Shown: positions 1,511 to 23,988 of the stretch, piece after piece | How positions within the stretch are numbered: the first letter of the stretch is position 1 | How the letters are laid out: every line of letters starts with the position of its first letter | NCBI RefSeq assembly: GCF_001548275.1 | Contig: NZ_AP014945.1 | Span: 510,001-542,000, forward strand | Direction of reading: 5' to 3' | DNA from: Caldimicrobium thiodismutans | GTDB lineage: Bacteria > Desulfobacterota > Thermodesulfobacteria > Thermodesulfobacteriales > Thermodesulfobacteriaceae | Length of the DNA stretch: 32,000 nt | Made by a program: the position numbers and the translations under genes | The notes under the pieces: model-generated | What the model was told of the DNA's origin: nothing | The model's input: the letters and a program-made list of their open reading frames with translations, nothing else | The model's database searches: none

Positions 1511-1715
1511 CTGCATAAGTTTTTATTCTTTCAAGGTGCATAGGTTCATATCCTTAGAAGAAAAAGAAAGGGTGGTAAAAAAGCCCCATGTAGGGGTCTA
1601 AAATTTTAAACCTCTACTTAAGGAAAGATTTTGCAGATTATTTATCCTTTCTTTCCAAAGGGGAATGGGCATAGTGTCCATAGAGTCTCAAAAGATATGG
1701 ACTTATACACACCTC

Positions 1716-1721
<6 letters not shown>
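1511..1721 (+). repeat. Full-length copy of a mosaic intergenic repeat (modules M1 1536-1583, M2 1599-1669, M3 box 1684-1710, then a -35-like hexamer)
   Basis: M1 recurs at 17676-17724 and 13567-13597. M2 recurs at 19351-19421 and, partially, on the minus strand at 16555-16603. M3 recurs at four further sites. All were aligned by eye. Confidence 0.7.
1684..1710 (+). promoter_or_regulatory. Conserved 27-bp promoter-proximal box, copy a (AGTCTCAAAAGATATGGACTTATACAC)
   Basis: One of five near-identical boxes. It is followed after 5 nt by TTGTCT and lies 42 nt before the atpD ATG. Confidence 0.6.
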
Positions 1722-3512
<1,791 letters not shown>

Positions 3513-3515
3513 AGT

Positions 3516-3785
3516 ATGCCTGAAAAACTGGAAGATCTTTTGAAAAGAGTTGAAAAATCTAAAAAACAAAGGAAAAAAGAGCTAAATTTTTGGCATTTTC
3601 TTTACAAATTTAGCTTTATTGGGCTTTTAGTGCTTTTACCTCTCCTTAGTTCCGCCTTTTTGGGAAATCTGTTTATCAAAAAATATTCACTACCTTCTTA
3701 TTTTTTCCTTTTCTTTATCCTTGCGGGGCTCCTCTTAAGCTTTTACAACCTATGGTATCTTTTCTGGAGGAAAAAAAGTGATTAA
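3516..3785 (+). CDS. Small 2-TM membrane protein, AtpZ/AtpI (AtpQ)-like N-ATPase accessory subunit
   Basis: 89 aa with a charged N-terminus and two hydrophobic helices. It occupies the position between atpC and atpB that atpQ/atpR occupy in N-ATPase operons. Confidence 0.6.
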   Translation: MPEKLEDLLKRVEKSKKQRKKELNFWHFLYKFSFIGLLVLLPLLSSAFLGNLFIKKYSLPSYFFLFFILAGLLLSFYNLWYLFWRKKSD

Positions 3786-4458
3786 AAGCTGGGGAATTTT
3801 TCCAGAGGAGCTTATTATTGGTCCTGTAGAAATAAGAGATACTGTTTTAATAACTTGGTCTGTAATGTTTATTCTTATAGGGTTTTCTGTCCTTTTAAGA
3901 AGAAAACTCTCCCTTTATCAACCCAGCCGATGGCAATTACTTTTAGAGGCTTTGATGGAAGGAGCCGAAAAACTTTGTCAAGATATCCTGAAAAAAGATT
4001 ACCTTAGGGCTTTGCCCTTTCTTTTAACCCTCTGGCTCTTTATAGGAACCTGTAATCTCATTGGAATTATTCCTGGTTTTTATCCCCCAACCTCAGATCT
4101 GAGTACCCCTCTTGCCTTTGCCTTTTCAGCCTTTCTAATGAGACATTTTTTAGGAATCCAAATCAAAGGTTTTAAAGGATATTTAGCACATTTTTTTAAA
4201 CCTTTTTTTCTTTTTCCCCTCCATTTATTAGCTGAATTAACCAGAAGCTTAGCCCTTGCAGTAAGGCTTTTTGGAAATATCTTAAGTGGAGAAATCGTTG
4301 CCCTAATTTTGCTTGGAATTGCAGGACTAATTCTCCCCATCCCCTTCATCTTTCTCCATTTAATTCTTGGGGTTCTTCAGGCTTATCTTTTTGGAATCCT
4401 GAGTCTCGCATTTCTTTCTCAAGCTATAGAAGACAATCAAAATAAGGAGGAGATATAG
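3778..4458 (+). CDS. atpB: ATPase subunit a
   Basis: 226 aa with a GTG start. It is polytopic and carries the stator arginine motif LAVRLFGNILSGE. Confidence 0.88.
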   Translation: MIKSWGIFPEELIIGPVEIRDTVLITWSVMFILIGFSVLLRRKLSLYQPSRWQLLLEALMEGAEKLCQDILKKDYLRALPFLLTLWLFIGTCNLIGIIPGFYPPTSDLSTPLAFAFSAFLMRHFLGIQIKGFKGYLAHFFKPFFLFPLHLLAELTRSLALAVRLFGNILSGEIVALILLGIAGLILPIPFIFLHLILGVLQAYLFGILSLAFLSQAIEDNQNKEEI

Positions 4459-4459
4459 A

Positions 4460-4723
4460 ATGGAAACGAAAGGCTTAATTGTGCTGGCATCCATTATTGT
4501 GGTAGCTTTGATGATGGCCCTTGGATCTTATGCTCCTGCCAGGGCTCTTGGACAATCCATTCAGAGCGCCCTTGAGGCCATTTCCAGACAGCCTGAGGCC
4601 TCTTCTCAAATCACCCGAACCTTTATCATAGGTATAGCCATAATTGAATCCATTGTGATTTATCTATTCGTAATTGCCCTTATTTTACTTTTTGCCAATC
4701 CCCTGCTTGATTATCTAAAATAG
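4460..4723 (+). CDS. atpE: ATPase subunit c
   Basis: 87 aa helical hairpin with an RQPE loop and the ion-binding carboxylate in IAIIESIVIY. Confidence 0.9.
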   Translation: METKGLIVLASIIVVALMMALGSYAPARALGQSIQSALEAISRQPEASSQITRTFIIGIAIIESIVIYLFVIALILLFANPLLDYLK

Positions 4724-4730
4724 ACCAACC

Positions 4731-5468
4731 ATGGAAATAAAGGGATTTCATTTCTTTACCTTTTTATTTCAAGTTATTAATTTTTTTATCCTTCTTTTGA
4801 TTTTATCTCGCCTACTTTACCGCCCTTTAAAAAATTTTATGGAAAAAAGGCAAGCTGAGCTCTCAAAATGTTTTTTTGATGCAGAGAACCTAAAAAAGGA
4901 GGCTATGAAGCTTGCCTTGACTTATGAAGAAAAACTCAAAGATCTGGAAAGTAAAAAAGAAGAAATTATAGAAAACAAGCTAAAAGAAGCTGAGGAAGAG
5001 GCACAAAAAATCATAGAAGGGGCTAAAAGAGAGGCTGAGAAGATTTTTGAGAAAGAGAGGGCGCTATTACAAAGAGAAATTGAAAAATCTGAAAACATCC
5101 TCAGAGAAAAAACCCTGGCACTTCTTATGGATTTTCTTGAAAAATTTTTAAAAGAACTCCCTTTAGAGGATTTGCATCAAATTCTTTCAGAAAGGGCTTT
5201 GAAAACTCTACCTCAGGAATTTGAAAAATTGAATCTATTTTTTGATCCAAATAAACCTTGTTCTGTTGAGATAGTTTCTGCCTTTTCTCTGTCCCAGGTA
5301 AAGGATAAAGTTCAGACTATTCTTGAAGAGAAGCTTCAAAGAAAAAGTGAAATCTTTATCATCAATGACCCATCTCTTCTTGCAGGATTTAAAATAAAAA
5401 TTGAGGGTTATATCATTGATTTCTCTTTACAAGGGCAGCTGAATAAAATTAGAAAGTCTCTGGAGTAG
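4731..5468 (+). CDS. atpF: ATPase peripheral-stalk subunit b fused to a delta(OSCP) C-terminal domain
   Basis: 245 aa with an N-terminal TM helix and a K/E-rich coiled coil. The C-terminal part, VEIVSAFSLSQVKDKVQTILEEKLQRKSEIFIINDPSLLAGFKIKIEGYIIDFSLQGQLNKIRKSL, aligns by eye with the C-terminus of E. coli delta (...VDVISAAALSEQQL...[30 protein letters not shown]). Confidence 0.8.
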   Translation: MEIKGFHFFTFLFQVINFFILLLILSRLLYRPLKNFMEKRQAELSKCFFDAENLKKEAMKLALTYEEKLKDLESKKEEIIENKLKEAEEEAQKIIEGAKREAEKIFEKERALLQREIEKSENILREKTLALLMDFLEKFLKELPLEDLHQILSERALKTLPQEFEKLNLFFDPNKPCSVEIVSAFSLSQVKDKVQTILEEKLQRKSEIFIINDPSLLAGFKIKIEGYIIDFSLQGQLNKIRKSLE

Positions 5469-5472
5469 TTAC

Positions 5473-6996
5473 TTGCTTGAAGATAGACTTGAGGCCTTTT
5501 TTCAAAAATTATACTCTAAATTAAAAGAGTATTCCTTTGAGCCCTATCTTGAAGAGGAAGGAACAGCGGTCTCTGTAGGAGATGATATCGTCTTTTTGAG
5601 GGGTTTACCGAATGCTACACTTTTTGAGCTTGTTGTCTTTGAGAGAGAGGATACAGGGCTTATTTTTGACCTTGATGTAGAAACCGCAGGAGTTGTTCTT
5701 TTACAAAAAAGGGGGGGTATTAAAGCCGGAGATAAGGCCTATCGCACTGGAAGAATGGTTTCTGTTCCCGTAGGAGAGTTTATCCTTGGCAAGGTATTAG
5801 ATGGATTGGGTAGTCCTCTGGAAGAAGAGTTTTCGAGGAAGATAGAAATTTATTATCCTGTGGAAAGGGAAGCCCCACCTCTCCTCCATAGAGACTTTGT
5901 AAGAGAACCATTATATACAGGTATTACAGTCATTGATGCTCTAATACCAATTGGAAGAGGACAAAGGGAGTTAATCCTTGGAGACCCAGCTACAGGGAAA
6001 ACTGCCTTAGCTGTTGACACTGTTGTTAATCAGAAAAAAAGTGATGTTATTTCTATATATGTCTCTATCGGACAAAAGCGGGAGCACATACAAAGAGTTT
6101 ATCAATTTATTGCCAATTATGGAGACCTCTCTAAAACCATTTTTCTTAAAGTTGAGGCTGGTGAACCCTTAGGTCTTCAATATCTTGCACCTTATACCGC
6201 TACAGCAATAGCTGAATTCCTTAGGGACAAAGGAAAAAGTGTTCTAATTATTTATGATGACCTAACTAAACATGCCAGTAGCTATAGATCTTTAAGTCTT
6301 TTACTTAAAAGACCACCAGGCCGAGAGGCCTTTCCAGGTGACATCTTTTATTTACATTCTCGTCTTCTTGAAAGGGCAGGAAAACTTAAGGACGAGCTTG
6401 GAGGTGGCTCTATCACTGCTTTGCCTATAGTGGAAACTCAGCAGGGAAATATTTCAGCCTTTATTCCTACTAATTTAATCTCCATTACCGATGGCCAGAT
6501 TTACTTAGATGTTGAGCTTTTTAACAAAAATATTAGGCCTGCTGTGGATGTAGGAAAATCCGTATCCCGCATTGGAGGTAAGGCTCAAGTCCCTATTATG
6601 AAAGAAGTGGCAGGTAAATTAAAAATAGAGTATGCCCAGTTTCTGGAAAAAGAAATATTTACCAAATTTGGCATGAAATTAGAAGAGGAGACCCTTAAAC
6701 TCATTCAGAGGGGACACCGATATAGAGAAATCTTTAAACAAAAACCTCTTCACCCTCGCTCTCTTGAAGAGCATATTCTACATTTAATGCTCGTAGATAC
6801 AGGAGTGCTTGATGAAGTCCCCCTTGAAAAAGTTACAGAGATTTCTTCAACTCTGATAAAAAAGTTGCAAGAAAGCCTACCTGAAATTACAAAAAACATT
6901 AAAACCCTTGGCAGGCTTACAACAAAAGAAAGGGAAATTATCAAAAAATTCTTTAGCAATCTCTTTCAAGAACTCTATGCTGGCCAAAGAGATTGA
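5473..6996 (+). CDS. atpA: ATPase subunit alpha
   Basis: 507 aa with a TTG start. Walker A GDPATGKTALAVD, and PGREAFPGDIFYLHSRLLERA. Confidence 0.92.
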   Translation: MLEDRLEAFFQKLYSKLKEYSFEPYLEEEGTAVSVGDDIVFLRGLPNATLFELVVFEREDTGLIFDLDVETAGVVLLQKRGGIKAGDKAYRTGRMVSVPVGEFILGKVLDGLGSPLEEEFSRKIEIYYPVEREAPPLLHRDFVREPLYTGITVIDALIPIGRGQRELILGDPATGKTALAVDTVVNQKKSDVISIYVSIGQKREHIQRVYQFIANYGDLSKTIFLKVEAGEPLGLQYLAPYTATAIAEFLRDKGKSVLIIYDDLTKHASSYRSLSLLLKRPPGREAFPGDIFYLHSRLLERAGKLKDELGGGSITALPIVETQQGNISAFIPTNLISITDGQIYLDVELFNKNIRPAVDVGKSVSRIGGKAQVPIMKEVAGKLKIEYAQFLEKEIFTKFGMKLEEETLKLIQRGHRYREIFKQKPLHPRSLEEHILHLMLVDTGVLDEVPLEKVTEISSTLIKKLQESLPEITKNIKTLGRLTTKEREIIKKFFSNLFQELYAGQRD

Positions 6997-7807
6997 GAAA
7001 AAGATTTTAACCTATCGCTCTATTCTTGAAATTATAAACGCCATGAAAGCCTTTGCCGGGGTAAATTATCGCAAGTGCGAAGAAAGAATCCATTCCTTAA
7101 GGACCTTTGAAAAATCCCTTTATGAAGGCCTTGGTATCCTTTTAAGTTTTTTTCCCGAACTAAAGATTTTAGAATCTGAAAAAAATACAAGATTGATTAT
7201 TGCCTTTGGATCAGATCAGGGGCTCTGCGGAGCATACAATTATAGAATTGCCGAAGAGCTCTCTTACCATATTAAAGAAAAGGATCTCTTAGTTATAATA
7301 GGAAGAAAACTCCAGGAAAGCATAATAGATTTCCATTTAAAAGCCGATCTTCCTTTAAGAGCAAGCGTTTCTGTTGAAGGCATAAGGGAATCTCTTGAAG
7401 AGATCTTTGAACATATCCTTAAATATTTAAAAAAATCTGGGCTTATGGATATTTATTTATGTTTTACCACTATTACAGAAAAACAAAGTATTATTCATTT
7501 TGAAAGGATTTTGCCCCCTGATTTAAAAAAAATTCAAGAGATCCCAACCCTTTCCCATCCACCTTTGCTTTATCTAAAACCTCAGATACTCTTTAATAAG
7601 TTTCTTGAGGAAATTATTTTTATAGGGCTCTATAGGGCCTATTTAGAAGCTCTAAGAAGTGAGGCCTACTTCAGGATTAAAAGCATGGAGACCGCATCTA
7701 CCAATATTGAAAAAAAAATAACTGAACTTCAGATTGCTAAACATTATCAAAGACAAGAAGAAATAACCTCTGAAATCATTGAAATTCTTATTGGAAGCAA
7801 ACTTTAG
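6977..7807 (+). CDS. atpG: ATPase subunit gamma
   Basis: I moved the start from the track's 6908 to the ATG at 6977. MLAKEIEKKILTYRSILEIINAMKAFAG matches the gamma N-terminal helix. This leaves a 20-nt overlap with atpA. Confidence 0.85.
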   Translation: MLAKEIEKKILTYRSILEIINAMKAFAGVNYRKCEERIHSLRTFEKSLYEGLGILLSFFPELKILESEKNTRLIIAFGSDQGLCGAYNYRIAEELSYHIKEKDLLVIIGRKLQESIIDFHLKADLPLRASVSVEGIRESLEEIFEHILKYLKKSGLMDIYLCFTTITEKQSIIHFERILPPDLKKIQEIPTLSHPPLLYLKPQILFNKFLEEIIFIGLYRAYLEALRSEAYFRIKSMETASTNIEKKITELQIAKHYQRQEEITSEIIEILIGSKL

Positions 7808-12384: not shown

Positions 12385-12727
12385 AATTTAACCCCCTCCT
12401 GCAATTTTTTATAAAAATGATATTGATTTGTTTTTTTTAAGTCAAATTTTAAAAATTTTAACTTATACCAGAAAAAGAAAATATTAAAAATTTTTGCTTT
12501 AAAATTTTTTCATAATCTTAAATTTCCGTTTAAAATCTTAATAAAGTCTTTATAAGTTTTTTTATCTAAGTTCCCCACCTTCCAAGAAACAGGAAGAGTA
12601 ATAAAAAGAAACTGAAAAATTAAAAGGTTTGCCTGAGCCTGTCTATAGCAGACAGAGGTTCAAGTTTTTAAATTTCCTACAATTCATTAAAAAAGATTGC
12701 ATAGCGGGAGTTGAAAAAGGCAGTTTA

Positions 12728-12754
12728 AGTCTCAAAAGATATGGACGCATACAC
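12728..12754 (+). promoter_or_regulatory. Conserved 27-bp box, copy d (AGTCTCAAAAGATATGGACGCATACAC)
   Basis: Followed after 4 nt by TTGACA (12759-12764). It lies 64 nt before the TetR ATG. Confidence 0.6.
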
Positions 12755-12780
12755 GGTATTGACAAATTTTTAGAAATATG

Positions 12781-12811
12781 TTACTTACTTTTGTAAGTAA
12801 GTGCTTACTTA
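12781..12811 (+). promoter_or_regulatory. Probable TetR operator: three alternating 8-bp half-sites
   Basis: TTACTTAC-tttt-GTAAGTAA overlaps TAAGTAAG-tg-CTTACTTA, giving two perfect overlapping palindromes between the TTGACA hexamer and the TetR start codon. Confidence 0.6.
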
Positions 12812-13427: not shown

Positions 13428-13566
13428 TATACTTTATGAAAAAGACCCAGATTGAACTTAAAGTGGCACATAAAAGAGAAGCTCTTTATCAATATGTAAA
13501 AACCGTTAAAAATGCATTTTTGAGATAAGAGCTGCCCTGACAGAACTTGAAAGCATTGAGATGAAA

Positions 13567-13597
13567 CTTAAAGAAAAAGAAAGGGTGGAAAAAGGGG
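13567..13597 (+). repeat. M1 module copy of the mosaic intergenic repeat (M2 module absent from this copy)
   Basis: CTTAAAGAAAAAGAAAGGGTGGAAAAAGGGG resembles 1553-1583 and 17694-17724. Confidence 0.5.
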
Positions 13598-13634
13598 AGA
13601 GGTGAAAGGAAAAGTATTAGAAAAAAATCTCTTT

Positions 13635-13661
13635 AGTCTCAAAAGATATAGACGCCTACAA
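13635..13661 (+). promoter_or_regulatory. Conserved 27-bp box, copy e (AGTCTCAAAAGATATAGACGCCTACAA)
   Basis: Followed after 4 nt by TTTTAA/CTTTTA, then TATAAT at 13688-13693. It lies 41 nt before the ftsE ATG. Confidence 0.55.
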
Positions 13662-13702
13662 GGGCTTTTAAATCTATACATATCATTTATAATAAAAACT
13701 TA

Positions 13703-16450: not shown

Positions 16451-16513
16451 ATAGGCCCTCTTATTACTTAAATTACTTTAAAGGTAACCTATTTAGTTAA
16501 TTTTGACAACCCT

Positions 16514-16640
16514 CTGTATGCCTCCATATCCTTAAAGATTTATGAAGATTTTTTCCCATACCTATTCCCCTCTCGAAACAAAGGATAAAAAACTGCCAAA
16601 ATTAACTGGAAAGCACAAAGTCATTTAAAACTTATGCTCT
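16514..16640 (-). repeat. Minus-strand copy of the mosaic repeat (M3 box comp 16514-16540, partial M2 comp 16555-16603, M1-like comp 16610-16640)
   Basis: The reverse complement reads ...GCATAAGTTTTAAATGAC...ATTTTGGCAGTTTTTTATCCTTTGTTTCGAGAGGGGAATAGG...AATCTTTAAGGATATGGAGGCATACAG-aggg-TTGTCA. This is colinear with 1511-1721. Confidence 0.6.
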
Positions 16641-17631: not shown

Positions 17632-17675
17632 ATTTCTAAATGCTTCTTCAGAAATGTGAAATTTTAAAATTCATC

Positions 17676-17724
17676 CTGCATAAGTTCATATCCTTACAAG
17701 AAAAAGGAAGTGGGGTAAAAGGGG
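17676..17724 (+). repeat. Left (M1) half of a mosaic repeat copy split by the IS110 element
   Basis: CTGCATAAGTTCATATCCTTACAAGAAAAAGGAAGTGGGGTAAAAGGGG corresponds to 1536-1583. The matching M2-M3 half resumes at 19349. Confidence 0.6.
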
Positions 17725-17760
17725 AATTAGATAATCTATACAAGGGAGGTTATACAAGTC

Positions 17761-17790
17761 TGAAAGTAACACAGGCAATCTTGCCTGTGG
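17761..17790. repeat. Subterminal 30-bp hairpin module (TGAAAGTAACACAGGCAATCTTGCCTGTGG)
   Basis: Perfect 8-bp stem CACAGGCA/TGCCTGTG at 17770-17789, 7 nt beyond the transposase stop codon. It is paralogous to 19290-19319. Confidence 0.6.
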
Positions 17791-17796
17791 AGTCAA

Positions 17797-19023
17797 CTAT
17801 GAAAAATTATAAGCATAGTAAAAACCTCCTTGAGAAGGAATATTATGATAAGTAGTAGAAGGATCAAAATATTTTTTATATTTGAGAAGTGCATAAATAA
17901 TTCTCAAAAGTTTATGAGCGGTGGCCAAAACCGCTTTTTTATAAGGCAATCCTTGTCTTTTTCTCCTCTCAAAATAGCTCCAGAATATAGGATTGTGTCT
18001 GATTACATTAATACTCATAAGCCATACAACCCTTCTCAAATGCCTATTTCCTCGTTTAGAAATCTTGCTCTTTCCTTTAAAGTTTCCAGATTCATAAACA
18101 GCAGGATCAAGTCCTGCATAGGCAATCAATTGTTTGTAAGATTGAAATCTCTTTATATCTTGAATTTCAGCAAGAAAATGAAGCGCTGTAATTTCTCCAA
18201 TTCCCTCAATAGAAAGGAGGATATCAAGGTCCTGGCAAGCGGAAATCTCTTTACAAGCGGATTTAAGAAGTTTTTCAATTTCTTTAAGGGTTTCCTGAAG
18301 GAAGAAGAGTTCTTGAATGGTTCTGGAAAGAATATATTCTTTTGCGGGCCAATTTTGAGCTATAGAATATTCAGCAAGGGCTTTTATTTCTTTAGCAGAA
18401 ATGGCGGGTTTTTTACCTTTTTGAGAGGAGAGTATATTTTCAATTTCCTCAAGAGAGGCTTTTTTAATAGCTTTAGCAGAGGGGAATTTTTCAAGAAGTT
18501 TAAGAATGGAGGTATTGTAGATATTGACGGTTCTTTCAAGTTCAGGGAAGGTAACGACCACAAGTTTTTCGAGGTTATTTTTTCTTTTAGCGATTTCTTG
18601 AGAAATTCTTTCTCTTTCTCTGGCAAGGTCTTTAAATTCTTCAGAAGTAAAGGCCTGGGGAGGTAGTTTTTGATGGAATTGAGAAAGGAAGATGGCGATA
18701 GTTTTAGCGTCTATGGCATCGGTTTTGGTTTTTCTAAGAGAGAGTTTAGCAAAATTTTTAATGAGAATTGGATTAAGGATGACGCAAGTGAAGTTATGAT
18801 TAACGAGGTAGGTGATGAGATTAAGATGATAACAACTGGAGGATTCAATACCGATAAGGATGGATTTTTTTAAGCCTTGAGGGAGAGCTTTTGTAAAGGA
18901 ACTGATGCCCTGGTAGTCAAGAGGGTAGGACTGGTTAAAGAGGACATTTTGAGAGGAATCAATGAGGCAGGCATGAAAGAAGTTTTTGGAGACATCAAGG
19001 CCTACAAAGTAGGTGTAGTGCAT
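17797..19023 (-). CDS. IS110-family DEDD transposase/recombinase
   Basis: 408 aa. The N-terminal RuvC-like DEDD domain has YFVGLDVSK, IGIESSSCYH and KTDAIDA. The C-terminal Transposase_20-type domain has LLSIEGIGEITALHFLAEI...GLDPAVYESGNFKGKSKISKRGNRHLR. Confidence 0.92.
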   Translation of the reverse strand: MHYTYFVGLDVSKNFFHACLIDSSQNVLFNQSYPLDYQGISSFTKALPQGLKKSILIGIESSSCYHLNLITYLVNHNFTCVILNPILIKNFAKLSLRKTKTDAIDAKTIAIFLSQFHQKLPPQAFTSEEFKDLARERERISQEIAKRKNNLEKLVVVTFPELERTVNIYNTSILKLLEKFPSAKAIKKASLEEIENILSSQKGKKPAISAKEIKALAEYSIAQNWPAKEYILSRTIQELFFLQETLKEIEKLLKSACKEISACQDLDILLSIEGIGEITALHFLAEIQDIKRFQSYKQLIAYAGLDPAVYESGNFKGKSKISKRGNRHLRRVVWLMSINVIRHNPIFWSYFERRKRQGLPYKKAVLATAHKLLRIIYALLKYKKYFDPSTTYHNIPSQGGFYYAYNFS

Positions 19024-19044
19024 AGGTGGACCTCCTTTTATTTT

Positions 19045-19200
19045 GTTTTAGTAAGGCAGGGGACCTGCTCACCAATCCTCCAACTTGACGAGGGTTTACA
19101 AACCCAACCAACTTATAATGGTTTAAGCAGGCAGGCAACAAACTCCACTGAGGGCTTAAAAGCCCAGGTAAAATGGAGTTGCCCTGCCTTACTCTCTTTT
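19045..19200 (-). ncRNA. Structured GC-rich RNA candidate in the IS110 5' non-coding end (bridge-RNA-like)
   Basis: On the minus strand there is a nested stem-loop, GGCAGG(G)C-AACTCCA-uuuuaccu-GGGCUU-uu-AAGCCC-ucag-UGGAGUU-uguu-GCCUGCC (19130-19188). There is also a hairpin GGGUUUguAAACCC (19092-19105) and a 12-nt outer complementarity between 19182-19193 and 19050-19061. The region is markedly more GC-rich than its surroundings. Confidence 0.4.
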
Positions 19201-19289
19201 CCATGTTTCTATTATAACCCCTATATATGCAAAAACTTAGGTAATAACATAACAAATTTTTCGTAGGAGGTAAATTACACTCCAATGTA

Positions 19290-19319
19290 TGAAAGAAACA
19301 CAGACAAGAATGTCTGTGC
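19290..19319. repeat. Subterminal 30-bp hairpin module (TGAAAGAAACACAGACAAGAATGTCTGTGC)
   Basis: Perfect 8-bp stem CACAGACA/TGTCTGTG at 19299-19318. Relative to 17770-17789, the stem differs by a compensated G:C to A:T change. Confidence 0.6.
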
Positions 19320-19348
19320 TATAACAAACCCACAAAAAATTCAAGGGG

Positions 19349-19511
19349 TATAAAATTTTAAACCTCTACTTAAGGAAAGATTTTGCAGATTTTTCATCCT
19401 TTCTTTCCGAAGGGGAACGGGTATGTGGAGAGATTTAATTTGTGTTAGGTCCTAAGAAAAAATCCTATAGAGTCTCAAAAGGTATGGATGCATACATACA
19501 TGACCTTGTTT
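19349..19511 (+). repeat. Right (M2-M3) half of the IS-split mosaic repeat copy
   Basis: 19351-19421 is nearly identical to 1599-1669. The box lies at 19471-19497 and TTGTTT at 19506-19511. Confidence 0.7.
19471..19497 (+). promoter_or_regulatory. Conserved 27-bp box, copy c (AGTCTCAAAAGGTATGGATGCATACAT)
   Basis: Followed after 8 nt by TTGTTT, then 16 nt, then TATTAT. It lies 62 nt before the hflX TTG start. Confidence 0.55.
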
Positions 19512-19559
19512 TTTTATTTTTTGCGATTATTATTCTATAAAAAATAGAAAAAGAGGAAC

Positions 19560-21878: not shown

Positions 21879-23717
21879 CTATTCAACAGTTACACTTTTG
21901 GCTAAATTTCTGGGTCTATCCACATCACATCCTCTCAAGACTGCCATCTCATAAGCAATAAGCTGTAAGGGCACCACATAAAAAATAGGTAAAAATTCAT
22001 AGGGAACCTGAGGAACCTCAAGGTAATCTTCACAAAGCCTTTTGACTTCTTCTGAACCCTGAGTAGTGATTCCAATTAGGGGGCCCCTTCGCGTTTTTAT
22101 CTCCTCTGCATTTGAAAGGGTCTTTTCATAAACTAAACCTGTCTCTTTAGCAGCTAAAATTATAGTGGGAAAACTCTCTTCAATCAAAGCAATGGGGCCA
22201 TGTTTCATCTCTCCTGCTGCATAACCCTCAGCATGAATATAAGCAATCTCCTTTAATTTCAAGGCCCCTTCAAGGGCAATGGGATATAAAATGTTTCTTC
22301 CAAGATAGAGAAAATCTTTGGCCTGATACCATTTCTTGGAAATTTCCTTAACCCTGGGGTAAGACTTATCCAGGAATTCCTGCAGGATGACCGGAAGGTG
22401 CAGTAATTTTTCTATAAGTTCAGGATATTGATTTAATCCCTTTTTTATTTTTTGTATATAGAGAGCTAAAAGCAAAAGCATCAATACCTGAGTGGTAAAG
22501 GCCTTGGTTGATGCTACACTTATTTCAGGACCAGCCTGAGTATAAAGCACAATCTCACTTTCCCGGGCAATGCTACTCCCAAGGACATTACAGATGGAAA
22601 TGACTTTGGCTCCTTTTTCCTTAGCTAATCTTAAACTTGCAAGAGTATCAGCTGTTTCACCAGATTGGGATATTCCGAGGAAAAGACACCTCTCATGCAA
22701 AAGGGGCTCACGATATCTAAATTCTGAAGCAAGCTCCACTTCAACAGGTATTTGAGTAAACCTTTCTAAGAAAAATTTACCCACAAGACCAGCATGATAG
22801 GAGGTGCCACAAGCTACTACATAAATCTTTACTATCTCTTTAAGCCAATCAATCTCTTTTTGCAATAGATCAATTTCAAAGGTCTCTAAGGAAATCCTAC
22901 CCAATAAAGTATTTTGAATGGCCTGGGGCTGTTCAAAAATCTCTTTAAGCATAAAATGGGGGAAACCACCTTTTTCTGCCTGCGAAAGATCCCAATGAAT
23001 CGTAGTTTCTGTATAGTCCTTTGAATTACCTTCAAAATCAAAGAGCTTAAGACCCTCTTTGGAAAGAATTGCACACTCTTTATCCTGTAGAAAAACAACC
23101 CTCTTTGTAAAGGGAAGAAGGGCTGGAATATCTGAAGCAAGAAAACTTTCCTTTTCTCCAAGGCCTATCACCAAGGGACTTTGATAACGAGCAACCAGAA
23201 TTTTATCTGGCTCTTTATTTGAAATCAAAGCTATGGCAAAGGCCCCTTGAAGCTCATTGATAGCTTTTAAAAAGGCCTCCCAAAGAGAAAAACCCTCTTT
23301 ATAATAATCTTCGATTAAATGAACAATAACCTCTGTATCTGTAGCTGAAACAAAGGTATGCCCTTTCTTTAATAATCTTTCCTTTAACTGATAATAATTT
23401 TCTATAATCCCATTGTGAACCAGAGCTAAGCCCTTTGAACAATCAAAATGAGGATGAGCATTCTCATCTGATGGTTCCCCGTGGGTGGCCCAACGGGTGT
23501 GTCCAAGGCCAGGGGCTCCCACTCCTGAGGTATCTTTTCTATAAAGTCTTTCTTCTAAATCATAAACCCTTCCCTTAACCTTGGTTATTTCAATATCATT
23601 TTTTCTAAAATATACTACTCCTGCTGAATCATATCCCCTATATTCAAGTCTTCTTAAGCCTTCAAGTAAAACTGGCCATAAAGGCCGATCCCCAATATAA
23701 CCAACTATTCCACACAT
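21879..23717 (-). CDS. glmS: Glutamine--fructose-6-phosphate aminotransferase (isomerizing)
   Basis: 612 aa. MCGIVGYIG Ntn-amidotransferase N-terminus, two SIS domains, and a C-terminal ...NLAKSVTVE. Confidence 0.95.
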   Translation of the reverse strand: MCGIVGYIGDRPLWPVLLEGLRRLEYRGYDSAGVVYFRKNDIEITKVKGRVYDLEERLYRKDTSGVGAPGLGHTRWATHGEPSDENAHPHFDCSKGLALVHNGIIENYYQLKERLLKKGHTFVSATDTEVIVHLIEDYYKEGFSLWEAFLKAINELQGAFAIALISNKEPDKILVARYQSPLVIGLGEKESFLASDIPALLPFTKRVVFLQDKECAILSKEGLKLFDFEGNSKDYTETTIHWDLSQAEKGGFPHFMLKEIFEQPQAIQNTLLGRISLETFEIDLLQKEIDWLKEIVKIYVVACGTSYHAGLVGKFFLERFTQIPVEVELASEFRYREPLLHERCLFLGISQSGETADTLASLRLAKEKGAKVISICNVLGSSIARESEIVLYTQAGPEISVASTKAFTTQVLMLLLLALYIQKIKKGLNQYPELIEKLLHLPVILQEFLDKSYPRVKEISKKWYQAKDFLYLGRNILYPIALEGALKLKEIAYIHAEGYAAGEMKHGPIALIEESFPTIILAAKETGLVYEKTLSNAEEIKTRRGPLIGITTQGSEEVKRLCEDYLEVPQVPYEFLPIFYVVPLQLIAYEMAVLRGCDVDRPRNLAKSVTVE

Positions 23718-23789
23718 TCTTCTCTACTACTCTCCTTTTGCGATTTTTTTGTTAATAATATAAGCATATCTCCTTTGCTTAATTTAAAA

Positions 23790-23912
23790 AAAAAGAGGGA
23801 CAAGAACTCCATTTCACCTGGGCTTAAAAGCCCCAAAAGGAGACTGTCCCCACTTCCAAAGAGAAGGTTTATGCTAAAAGCCCTTGCCACACTGGAGGAT
23901 GGAGTAAGGGAT
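23790..23912 (+). ncRNA. Orphan, diverged homolog of the IS110 5' structured region (strand tentative)
   Basis: The plus strand, GGGACAagAACTCCatttcacctGGGCTTaaAAGCCCcaaaaGGAGacTGTCCC, parallels the minus strand of 19130-19188 and has a different but still complementary outer stem. Downstream homology continues (...CTGGAGGATGG versus ...GTTGGAGGATTGG). No transposase gene is adjacent. Confidence 0.3.
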
Positions 23913-23988
23913 AAATTTAATTCTATTCCCATCAAAAATTTAATAAAAGGATAAATAATTCTAAGGTGATTTGCCATGACTAACATTT

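Follow-up and report, generated by a model that had tools for sequence, protein, structure and literature searches.

The window analyzed here is a 32,000-nt stretch of the Caldimicrobium thiodismutans genome (NZ_AP014945.1, positions 510,001 to 542,000) that carries yebC, an F-type ATP synthase operon, a TetR gene directly before ftsE, a 156-aa ORF divergent from cbpA, and hflX. Gene names assigned earlier were borne out for the atp operon, which starts with atpD, for TetR and HflX, and for ftsE, where an ABC ATPase followed by an M23 peptidase resembles FtsEX-EnvC. The ATP synthase operon (1753–7807) reads atpD-atpC, an atpI-like gene, atpB, atpE, an atpF/H fusion, atpA and atpG, an unusual order that is kept in all retrieved relatives (L170, L173 and L174).

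The original prediction described a 27-bp box in front of five genes, always co-oriented with the downstream gene, followed after 4–8 nt by a −35-like hexamer, and lying at one of two distances from the start codon (41–42 or 62–64 nt). The copies, hexamers, gaps and both distance classes were all verified by reading the sequence:

Box a, 1684–1710, forward strand: 5 nt to TTGTCT; 42 nt from box end to the atpD start codon.
Box d, 12728–12754, forward strand: 4 nt to TTGACA; 64 nt to the TetR start codon.
Box e, 13635–13661, forward strand: 4 nt to TTTTAA; 41 nt to the ftsE start codon.
Box b, 16514–16540, reverse strand: 4 nt to TTGTCA; 63 nt to the start codon of the 156-aa ORF.
Box c, 19471–19497, forward strand: 8 nt to TTGTTT; 62 nt to the hflX start codon.

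A search of the window allowing three mismatches returned the four forward-strand copies and no matches in 100 shuffles; the fifth was added by a weight-matrix scan. No position in the 32 kb scored between 12 and 33 bits, setting the box family cleanly apart from background, and the five clean copies compare with none expected by chance. The boxes are 78–93% alike. The proposed dyad, (G/A)TATG-N4-CATAC, is complete in three of the five copies and incomplete in the rest. Co-orientation holds but is weaker evidence than it sounds because in three of the five cases the box lies between divergent genes, where either orientation faces some gene. It is informative only in the three tandem contexts, namely e, c and a sixth copy on a metagenome contig (L159). 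Across eight copies from at least two species, the gaps between box and −35 are 4, 4, 4, 4, 4, 5, 8 and 11 nt, mostly constant with clear exceptions.

The box turned out to be the outer 26–27 bp of a 110–235-bp repeat with a sharp left end (TGCATAAGTTCATATCC...) and a sharp right end (...GGACGCATACA). The repeat copies and an insertion that splits one of them are as follows:

Element a, 1512–1709, forward strand: MITE-like element delimited by repeat families D1, D2, D3 and D7 and by the terminal-repeat test, with tandem left ends (1512–1536 and 1537–1562), the AAGAAAAAGAAAGGGTGGTAAAA module, the CCCCATGTAGGGG hairpin, a transposase 3′ relic (1592–1672) and, as right terminal repeat, box a.
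Element d, 12553–12753, forward strand: left end degenerate and left boundary approximate; D2 module at 12584–12606; right end, box d.
Element e, 13553–13660, forward strand: left end degenerate; D2 module at 13571–13593; right end, box e.
Element b, 16515–16632, reverse strand: right end, box b; transposase relic at 16558–16602; degenerate left end, GCATAAGTT; recognized as inverted repeat I1.
Element c, left half, 17677–17721, forward strand: left terminal repeat TGCATAAGTTCATATCC and D2 module; D7 family.
IS110-family insertion sequence splitting element c, 17722–19343, reverse strand: boundaries from the colinearity test.
Element c, right half, 19344–19496, forward strand: transposase relic and box c.

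Several modules tie these copies together. About 80 nt just upstream of the box are common to copies a, b and c (families D3 and I1), the D2 module, AAGAAAAAGAAAGGGTGGTAAAA, is common to copies a, d and e and the spacer between cbpA and the IS110 unit, and the D7 module links 1530–1580 with 17670–17720. Left ends open abruptly with TGCATAAGTTCATATCC at four places (1512, 1537 and 17677 in the window and 4450 in L159), and all six right ends finish at ...CATACA, giving TG...CA tips (TGCATAAG... in the four left ends, ...CATACA in the six right ends). When the left ends were compared in fixed register with the reverse-complemented right ends (TGTATGCGTCCATATCT), tips aligned, 13.8 of 22 positions matched, against 6.4 ± 1.7 in column-permuted controls (P ~5e-5). 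The element ends are thus imperfect terminal inverted repeats with TG...CA tips, and the box, as one of these repeats, would be a transposase-binding end.

Element c became legible once its two halves were rejoined. Joining 17677–17721 to 19344–19496 yields a sequence colinear with element a (84.6% identity over 136 nt, E 7e-32), which places the IS110 unit at 17722–19343. Its 408-aa transposase is encoded on the reverse strand at 17797–19023 (Pfam DEDD_Tnp_IS110, 9e-34; Transposase_20, 1e-27). The IS110 element is complete and lies in the hairpin region of copy c, where it replaces 8–11 nt that read AAGCCCCATGT in element a; its non-coding ends matched no Rfam family.

The copies are small (~110–235 bp) and dispersed, five in the window plus L159, and stop codons abound in their interiors. 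Among copies b, d and e, decay has spared the right ends, the boxes, more than the left ends and interiors; in the best-aligned pair, a and c, conservation is higher in the transposase relic (93%) than in the box (81%). The internal layout is the same in elements a, c and L159, which argues for one non-autonomous, MITE-like lineage rather than independently decayed insertion sequences. No consistent target-site duplication was visible when the flanks were read by eye; only copy b offers a candidate, which may be a 3-bp GAG, and several copies sit at rearrangement breakpoints.

In L159 the box is followed after 4 nt by TTGACG-17-TATAAT, and ...NYPRNLKGNAYVERFNRTLKEQFIDFREWQLEEE precedes it in frame. 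Three profiles recognize this stretch, namely Pfam rve_3 (E 3.4e-4), the IS3 transposase model of NCBIfam (1.9e-4) and the model for IS481 (9.5e-4), and by tblastn it matches transposase relics on plasmids that read ...PKMNATCERFNRTLREQFIEFNELLLFEDL. The label "ISEc27" near the best plasmid match belongs to the neighboring gene; what matches is a transposase relic that has no annotation. The L159 stretch survives in decayed form in window copies a, b and c: copy c translates as GKILQIFHPFFPKGNGYVERFN...ESQKVWMHTY (rve_3 E 0.077) and copy a as GKILQIIYPFFPKGNGH, and the right half of element c is 62% identical to the L159 element over 149 nt (E 1.6e-6). Given these translations and the L159 match, the D3 module is the decayed 3′ end of a transposase gene, with the box following it.

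The C-terminal motif ...ERFNRTLKE... of rve-type transposases and the TG...CA termini (right end TGT...ACA) recall the IS3 and IS481 families. Unlike members of those families, the element retains only about 35 transposase codons, which is why the relic's match, though significant, scores below curated family cut-offs: a 34-residue stretch of the fragment matches the IS3 model NF033516, at 20.8 bits against a cut-off of 160. The relic therefore supports the rve superfamily and no specific family. We propose that the repeat family arose when an IS3/IS481-type insertion sequence, one encoding an rve DDE transposase, lost its internal part. A protein search with the relic gave no candidates, and no full-length parent insertion sequence with these ends was found.

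Wider searches for the box gave little beyond L159. Scanning a genome collection of representative genomes, the source species not among them, with AGTCTCAAAAGRTATRGA produced 43 single matches in unrelated taxa, which we judged to be chance. A more degenerate pattern, run against metagenomes, was too permissive (at least 120 loci), and L159 was the only true relative among the matches listed. The viral-contig scan returned no matches for the box, and neither Rfam nor a tRNA search gave a match; the box belongs to no known RNA. As far as we searched, the MITE family is undescribed, the literature search having turned up general MITE literature only.

We then compared the promoters next to the boxes with those of relatives retrieved by AtpD (88, 81 and 75% identity) and CbpA (90, 87, 74 and 70%). 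A simple consensus scanner calls the atpD promoter only; the others rest on cross-species conservation.

atpD promoter, native, 1716–1744, forward strand: TTGTCT-17-TATAAT; ATG 8 nt past the −10, apparently leaderless; scanner match.
TetR promoter, native, 12759–12811, forward strand: TTGACA (12759–12764), TACTTA (12782–12787) and the palindrome TAAGTAAGTGCTTACTTA (12794–12811).
ftsE promoter, 13666–13693, forward strand: TTTTAA-16-TATAAT; ATG 9 nt past the −10, apparently leaderless; read from sequence.
hflX promoter, native, 19506–19534, forward strand: TTGTTT-17-ATTATT; near-identical in L181.

In four relatives (L170, L172, L173 and L174), TTGTCT-17-TATAAT stands directly after mnmE, without a box and with the atpD ATG 8–9 nt further on. 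The TetR TTGACA and palindrome (AAGTTAGTRCTTACT) are kept in L170 and L177, the latter without a box, and L177 also has the ftsE TATAAT at equal distance from the ATG, again without a box. In L181, the closest relative (CbpA identity 90%), nearly every base of the hflX promoter is unchanged, and the sequence at the box position is degenerate. The cbpA promoter, TTGATT-16-TATATT, is kept in five lineages. Overall, the box does not occur at atpD in L170–L174 or at TetR, ftsE or hflX in L177–L179. Because the promoters are present in relatives that do not have the box, they are native rather than donated, and the box marks no conserved regulon. Both atpD and ftsE appear to be leaderless, their ATG lying 8–9 nt past TATAAT.

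Between the TetR −10 and ATG, 12794–12811 form a perfect palindrome, TAAGTAAG-TG-CTTACTTA, also kept in L170 and L177; it is likely an autoregulatory TetR operator. The box as TetR operator is ruled out, since this separate palindrome is the one conserved with the TetR gene in relatives.

The same scanner reported inward-facing promoter-like sites at 12736–12765 (reverse strand) and 16503–16532 (forward strand). Each has its −10 (TATCTT and TATCCT, respectively) inside the box and a −35 that overlaps, on the opposite strand, the region of the native −35; these sites are probably coincidental.

The surroundings of the elements have been rearranged. In relatives mnmE is followed by atpD, while in the window yebC and atpD are neighbors; in L173, yebC follows a cytochrome gene. 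L177 has TetR, a PMT_2 gene and then ftsE, whereas the window has TetR directly before ftsE. The two tandem left-end repeats of element a lie at the yebC/atpD synteny breakpoint, which suggests either a nested or tandem insertion or a recombination scar at this breakpoint. Same-species contigs 99.4–99.9% identical to the window come from hot-spring mat metagenomes (JGI 3300038964, GCA_017880035.1 and SRR12784215; the last run is mentioned in PMC7729410, which deals with a hot-spring mat metagenome), and same-species assemblies break inside element a, as expected for a genomic repeat. CbpA homologues from named sources, at 70–74% identity, put the organism close to Caldimicrobium within the Thermodesulfobacteriaceae.

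Taken with the anatomy of the repeat, these comparisons make it likely that a small transposon, non-autonomous (MITE-like) and now decayed, lies just upstream of pre-existing promoters and that the box is its right terminal repeat. Element copies occupy the few nucleotides between a gene end or divergent promoter and the next gene's −35, and the downstream −35, −10 and leader are the genes' own ancestral promoters. The distance from box to start codon is the sum of the gap to the −35 (4–8 nt), the core promoter (28–29 nt) and the −10-to-start distance (8–9 nt in leaderless genes, 25–30 nt in the others). The two distance classes arise because the element tip lies 4–8 nt from the −35 and the promoter is either leaderless or has a 25–30-nt leader.

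The space available at these sites is small. In element-free relatives the corresponding intergenic gaps are 18–134 nt, with 44–48 nt between mnmE and atpD, 73 nt between the 156-aa ORF and cbpA, and, between cbpA and hflX, 18 nt in L177 and 66 nt in the C. thiodismutans-like L179/L180, both without a box. Such compactness probably leaves only a handful of positions that can accept an insertion, and closeness to a −35 is expected in this lineage. As for the left ends, that of element a is 3 nt from a −35-like hexamer for yebC, and that of element b, an element flanked by the divergent 156-aa ORF and cbpA promoters, is 13 nt from the cbpA −35, where homology to L181 upstream of the −35 resumes. 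We infer that the elements lie so close to promoters because only such copies survived in a very compact genome, perhaps with some help from a target preference, and that the box has no required role in transcription. Six of the eight copies are 4–5 nt from a −35, which is tighter than simple survivorship predicts.

There is a modest chance of another reading: either one-orientation insertion fixed 4–5 bp upstream of sigma-70 −35 hexamers, loosely like Ty3 at Pol III promoters, or a co-opted terminal repeat that has become a lineage-specific protein-binding site evolving in concert within each species. Pertinent to both, the 87–88% relative carries a variant of the box (AGTCTAAAATCYYATGRACTCATA) at two of the promoters that are boxed in the window, those of TetR and hflX, and its variants (AGTCTAAAATCCTATGGACTCATACTC and AGTCTAAAATCTCATGAACTCATAAAG) share four to five differences from the window type. 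Variants at the same two promoters require independent insertion, gene conversion or selection. We favor bursts of insertion that struck the same few permissive gaps independently in each lineage; gene conversion, target specificity and selection exerted by a binding protein are less favored possibilities. The same relative also has its own GC-rich repeat of ~25 nt, CGCAGGCTAAAGGTCTTGCGGCTACC, at L170 18952–19520 and at L175 1041–1310 and 2228–2385; it is tandem as well as dispersed, occupies the same intergenic regions and in some cases adjoins that relative's box variants.

Under promoter-targeted transposition, the transposase would pick sites ~4–5 bp upstream of sigma-70-type −35 hexamers in one orientation, making the geometry a matter of target choice. 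The gaps in the eight copies from at least two species fit this, as does the box facing the downstream promoter in all three tandem contexts (e, c and L159), and the related species' variant at the same TetR and hflX promoters fits independent hits. The sample is only eight copies, however, with several weak −35 assignments (TTTTAA, TTGTTT), and the tolerated gaps in relatives, 6–17 nt wide, already force proximity. Neither target-site duplications nor pairs of empty and filled alleles were seen, and left-end distances to neighboring features vary from 3 to >100 nt. We give this reading a small chance.

Co-option would have the element end bound by a domesticated transposase or host factor at about −41 to −67, modulating promoters as a young, lineage-specific regulon. 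The boxes have remained 78–93% alike while the left ends and interiors of b, d and e decayed, and in the 87–88% relative nothing but the box part remains beside the TetR and hflX promoters, where the two boxes share species-specific changes, a pattern that co-evolution with a binding protein would produce. In a strain comparison of low power, boxes a and d show no polymorphism, against seven differences elsewhere in these two elements and in the sequence directly flanking them. We nonetheless regard co-option as unlikely. The genes have no function in common (they encode ATP synthase, TetR, FtsEX, HflX and a small protein), about half of the window's promoter-containing gaps have a box, and the promoters work without one in relatives, the closest of which keeps the hflX promoter and lets the box decay. 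Moreover, spacing of 4–11 nt changes the helical face, and between a and c the box is less conserved than the relic.

The regulatory readings of the original prediction, a transcription factor or UP-like site defining a regulon, are not supported. A regulatory site should be kept at orthologous promoters; in related species the atpD, TetR, ftsE and hflX promoters stand without the box, which is missing or, at hflX in L181, degenerate, and the spacing ranges over 4–11 nt. The box does lie at roughly −41 to −67 from the inferred transcription start, as UP elements and class-I activator sites do. It differs from these in that its promoter-near half (GGACGCATACA) is not A+T-rich, it is not kept at orthologous promoters, and its spacing is not strictly fixed. 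The UP consensus is A+T-rich from −38 to −59, and the 12 nt nearest the promoter read GGACGCATACAC; the element in fact displaces native upstream A/T-rich tracts seen in relatives.

The other earlier suggestion, that the box is the promoter-bearing end of a dispersed repeat, was right about the repeat: the box is an end of a transposon-derived one. The promoter part did not stand. No hexamer falls within the conserved repeat, the hexamers vary from copy to copy, and relatives without the repeat have them too, so that −35, −10 and leader are native and older than the element; on this comparison of sequences, promoter donation is refuted for the sites open to it. A junction promoter, with an outward −35 in the right end, was rejected, as the end offers weak hexamers only (TGGACG/T). 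The box is thus probably an ordinary mobile-element relic and not a regulatory site.

Bacterial MITEs that arose from insertion sequences by internal deletion, such as RUP of Streptococcus pneumoniae, have been reviewed (PMC2229807, PMC3184786). The present elements resemble them in being small, with imperfect terminal inverted repeats, no intact transposase and remnants of a parent insertion sequence inside, and in occurring as several dispersed intergenic copies tied to rearrangement breakpoints. Unlike those MITEs, the copies here are structurally heterogeneous, their right end is consistently 4–8 nt from a native −35, and neither a parent insertion sequence nor a target-site duplication has been identified for the family. 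The Correia repeat-enclosed elements of Neisseria are likewise MITE-like and abundant just upstream of genes; their terminal repeats are suspected of being regulatory, their ends create or carry promoter hexamers, and they carry an IHF site. By comparison, the −35 and −10 here are native and present in relatives without the element.

These results remove a false lead, in that no new global regulon or promoter element lies at the box. They add a probable, previously undescribed MITE family in a Thermodesulfobacteriaceae thermophile, one whose copies mark breaks in synteny and have in turn received an IS110 insertion. They also suggest a passive route by which a conserved motif can come to lie at a fixed distance from start codons, namely the packing of mobile-element ends against native promoters in a compact genome. 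Should the 4–5-nt spacing hold across the whole genome, it would indicate that the element chooses its targets in an unusual way.

Upstream of the IS110 transposase, the non-coding sequence contains a structured palindrome of 43 nt (AACTCCA..GGGCTTAAAAGCCC..TGGAGTT, 19138–19180), which recurs with 79% identity at 23805–23847, inside or next to a small ORF (23705–23986). It may represent a second repeat family or an IS110-related relic.
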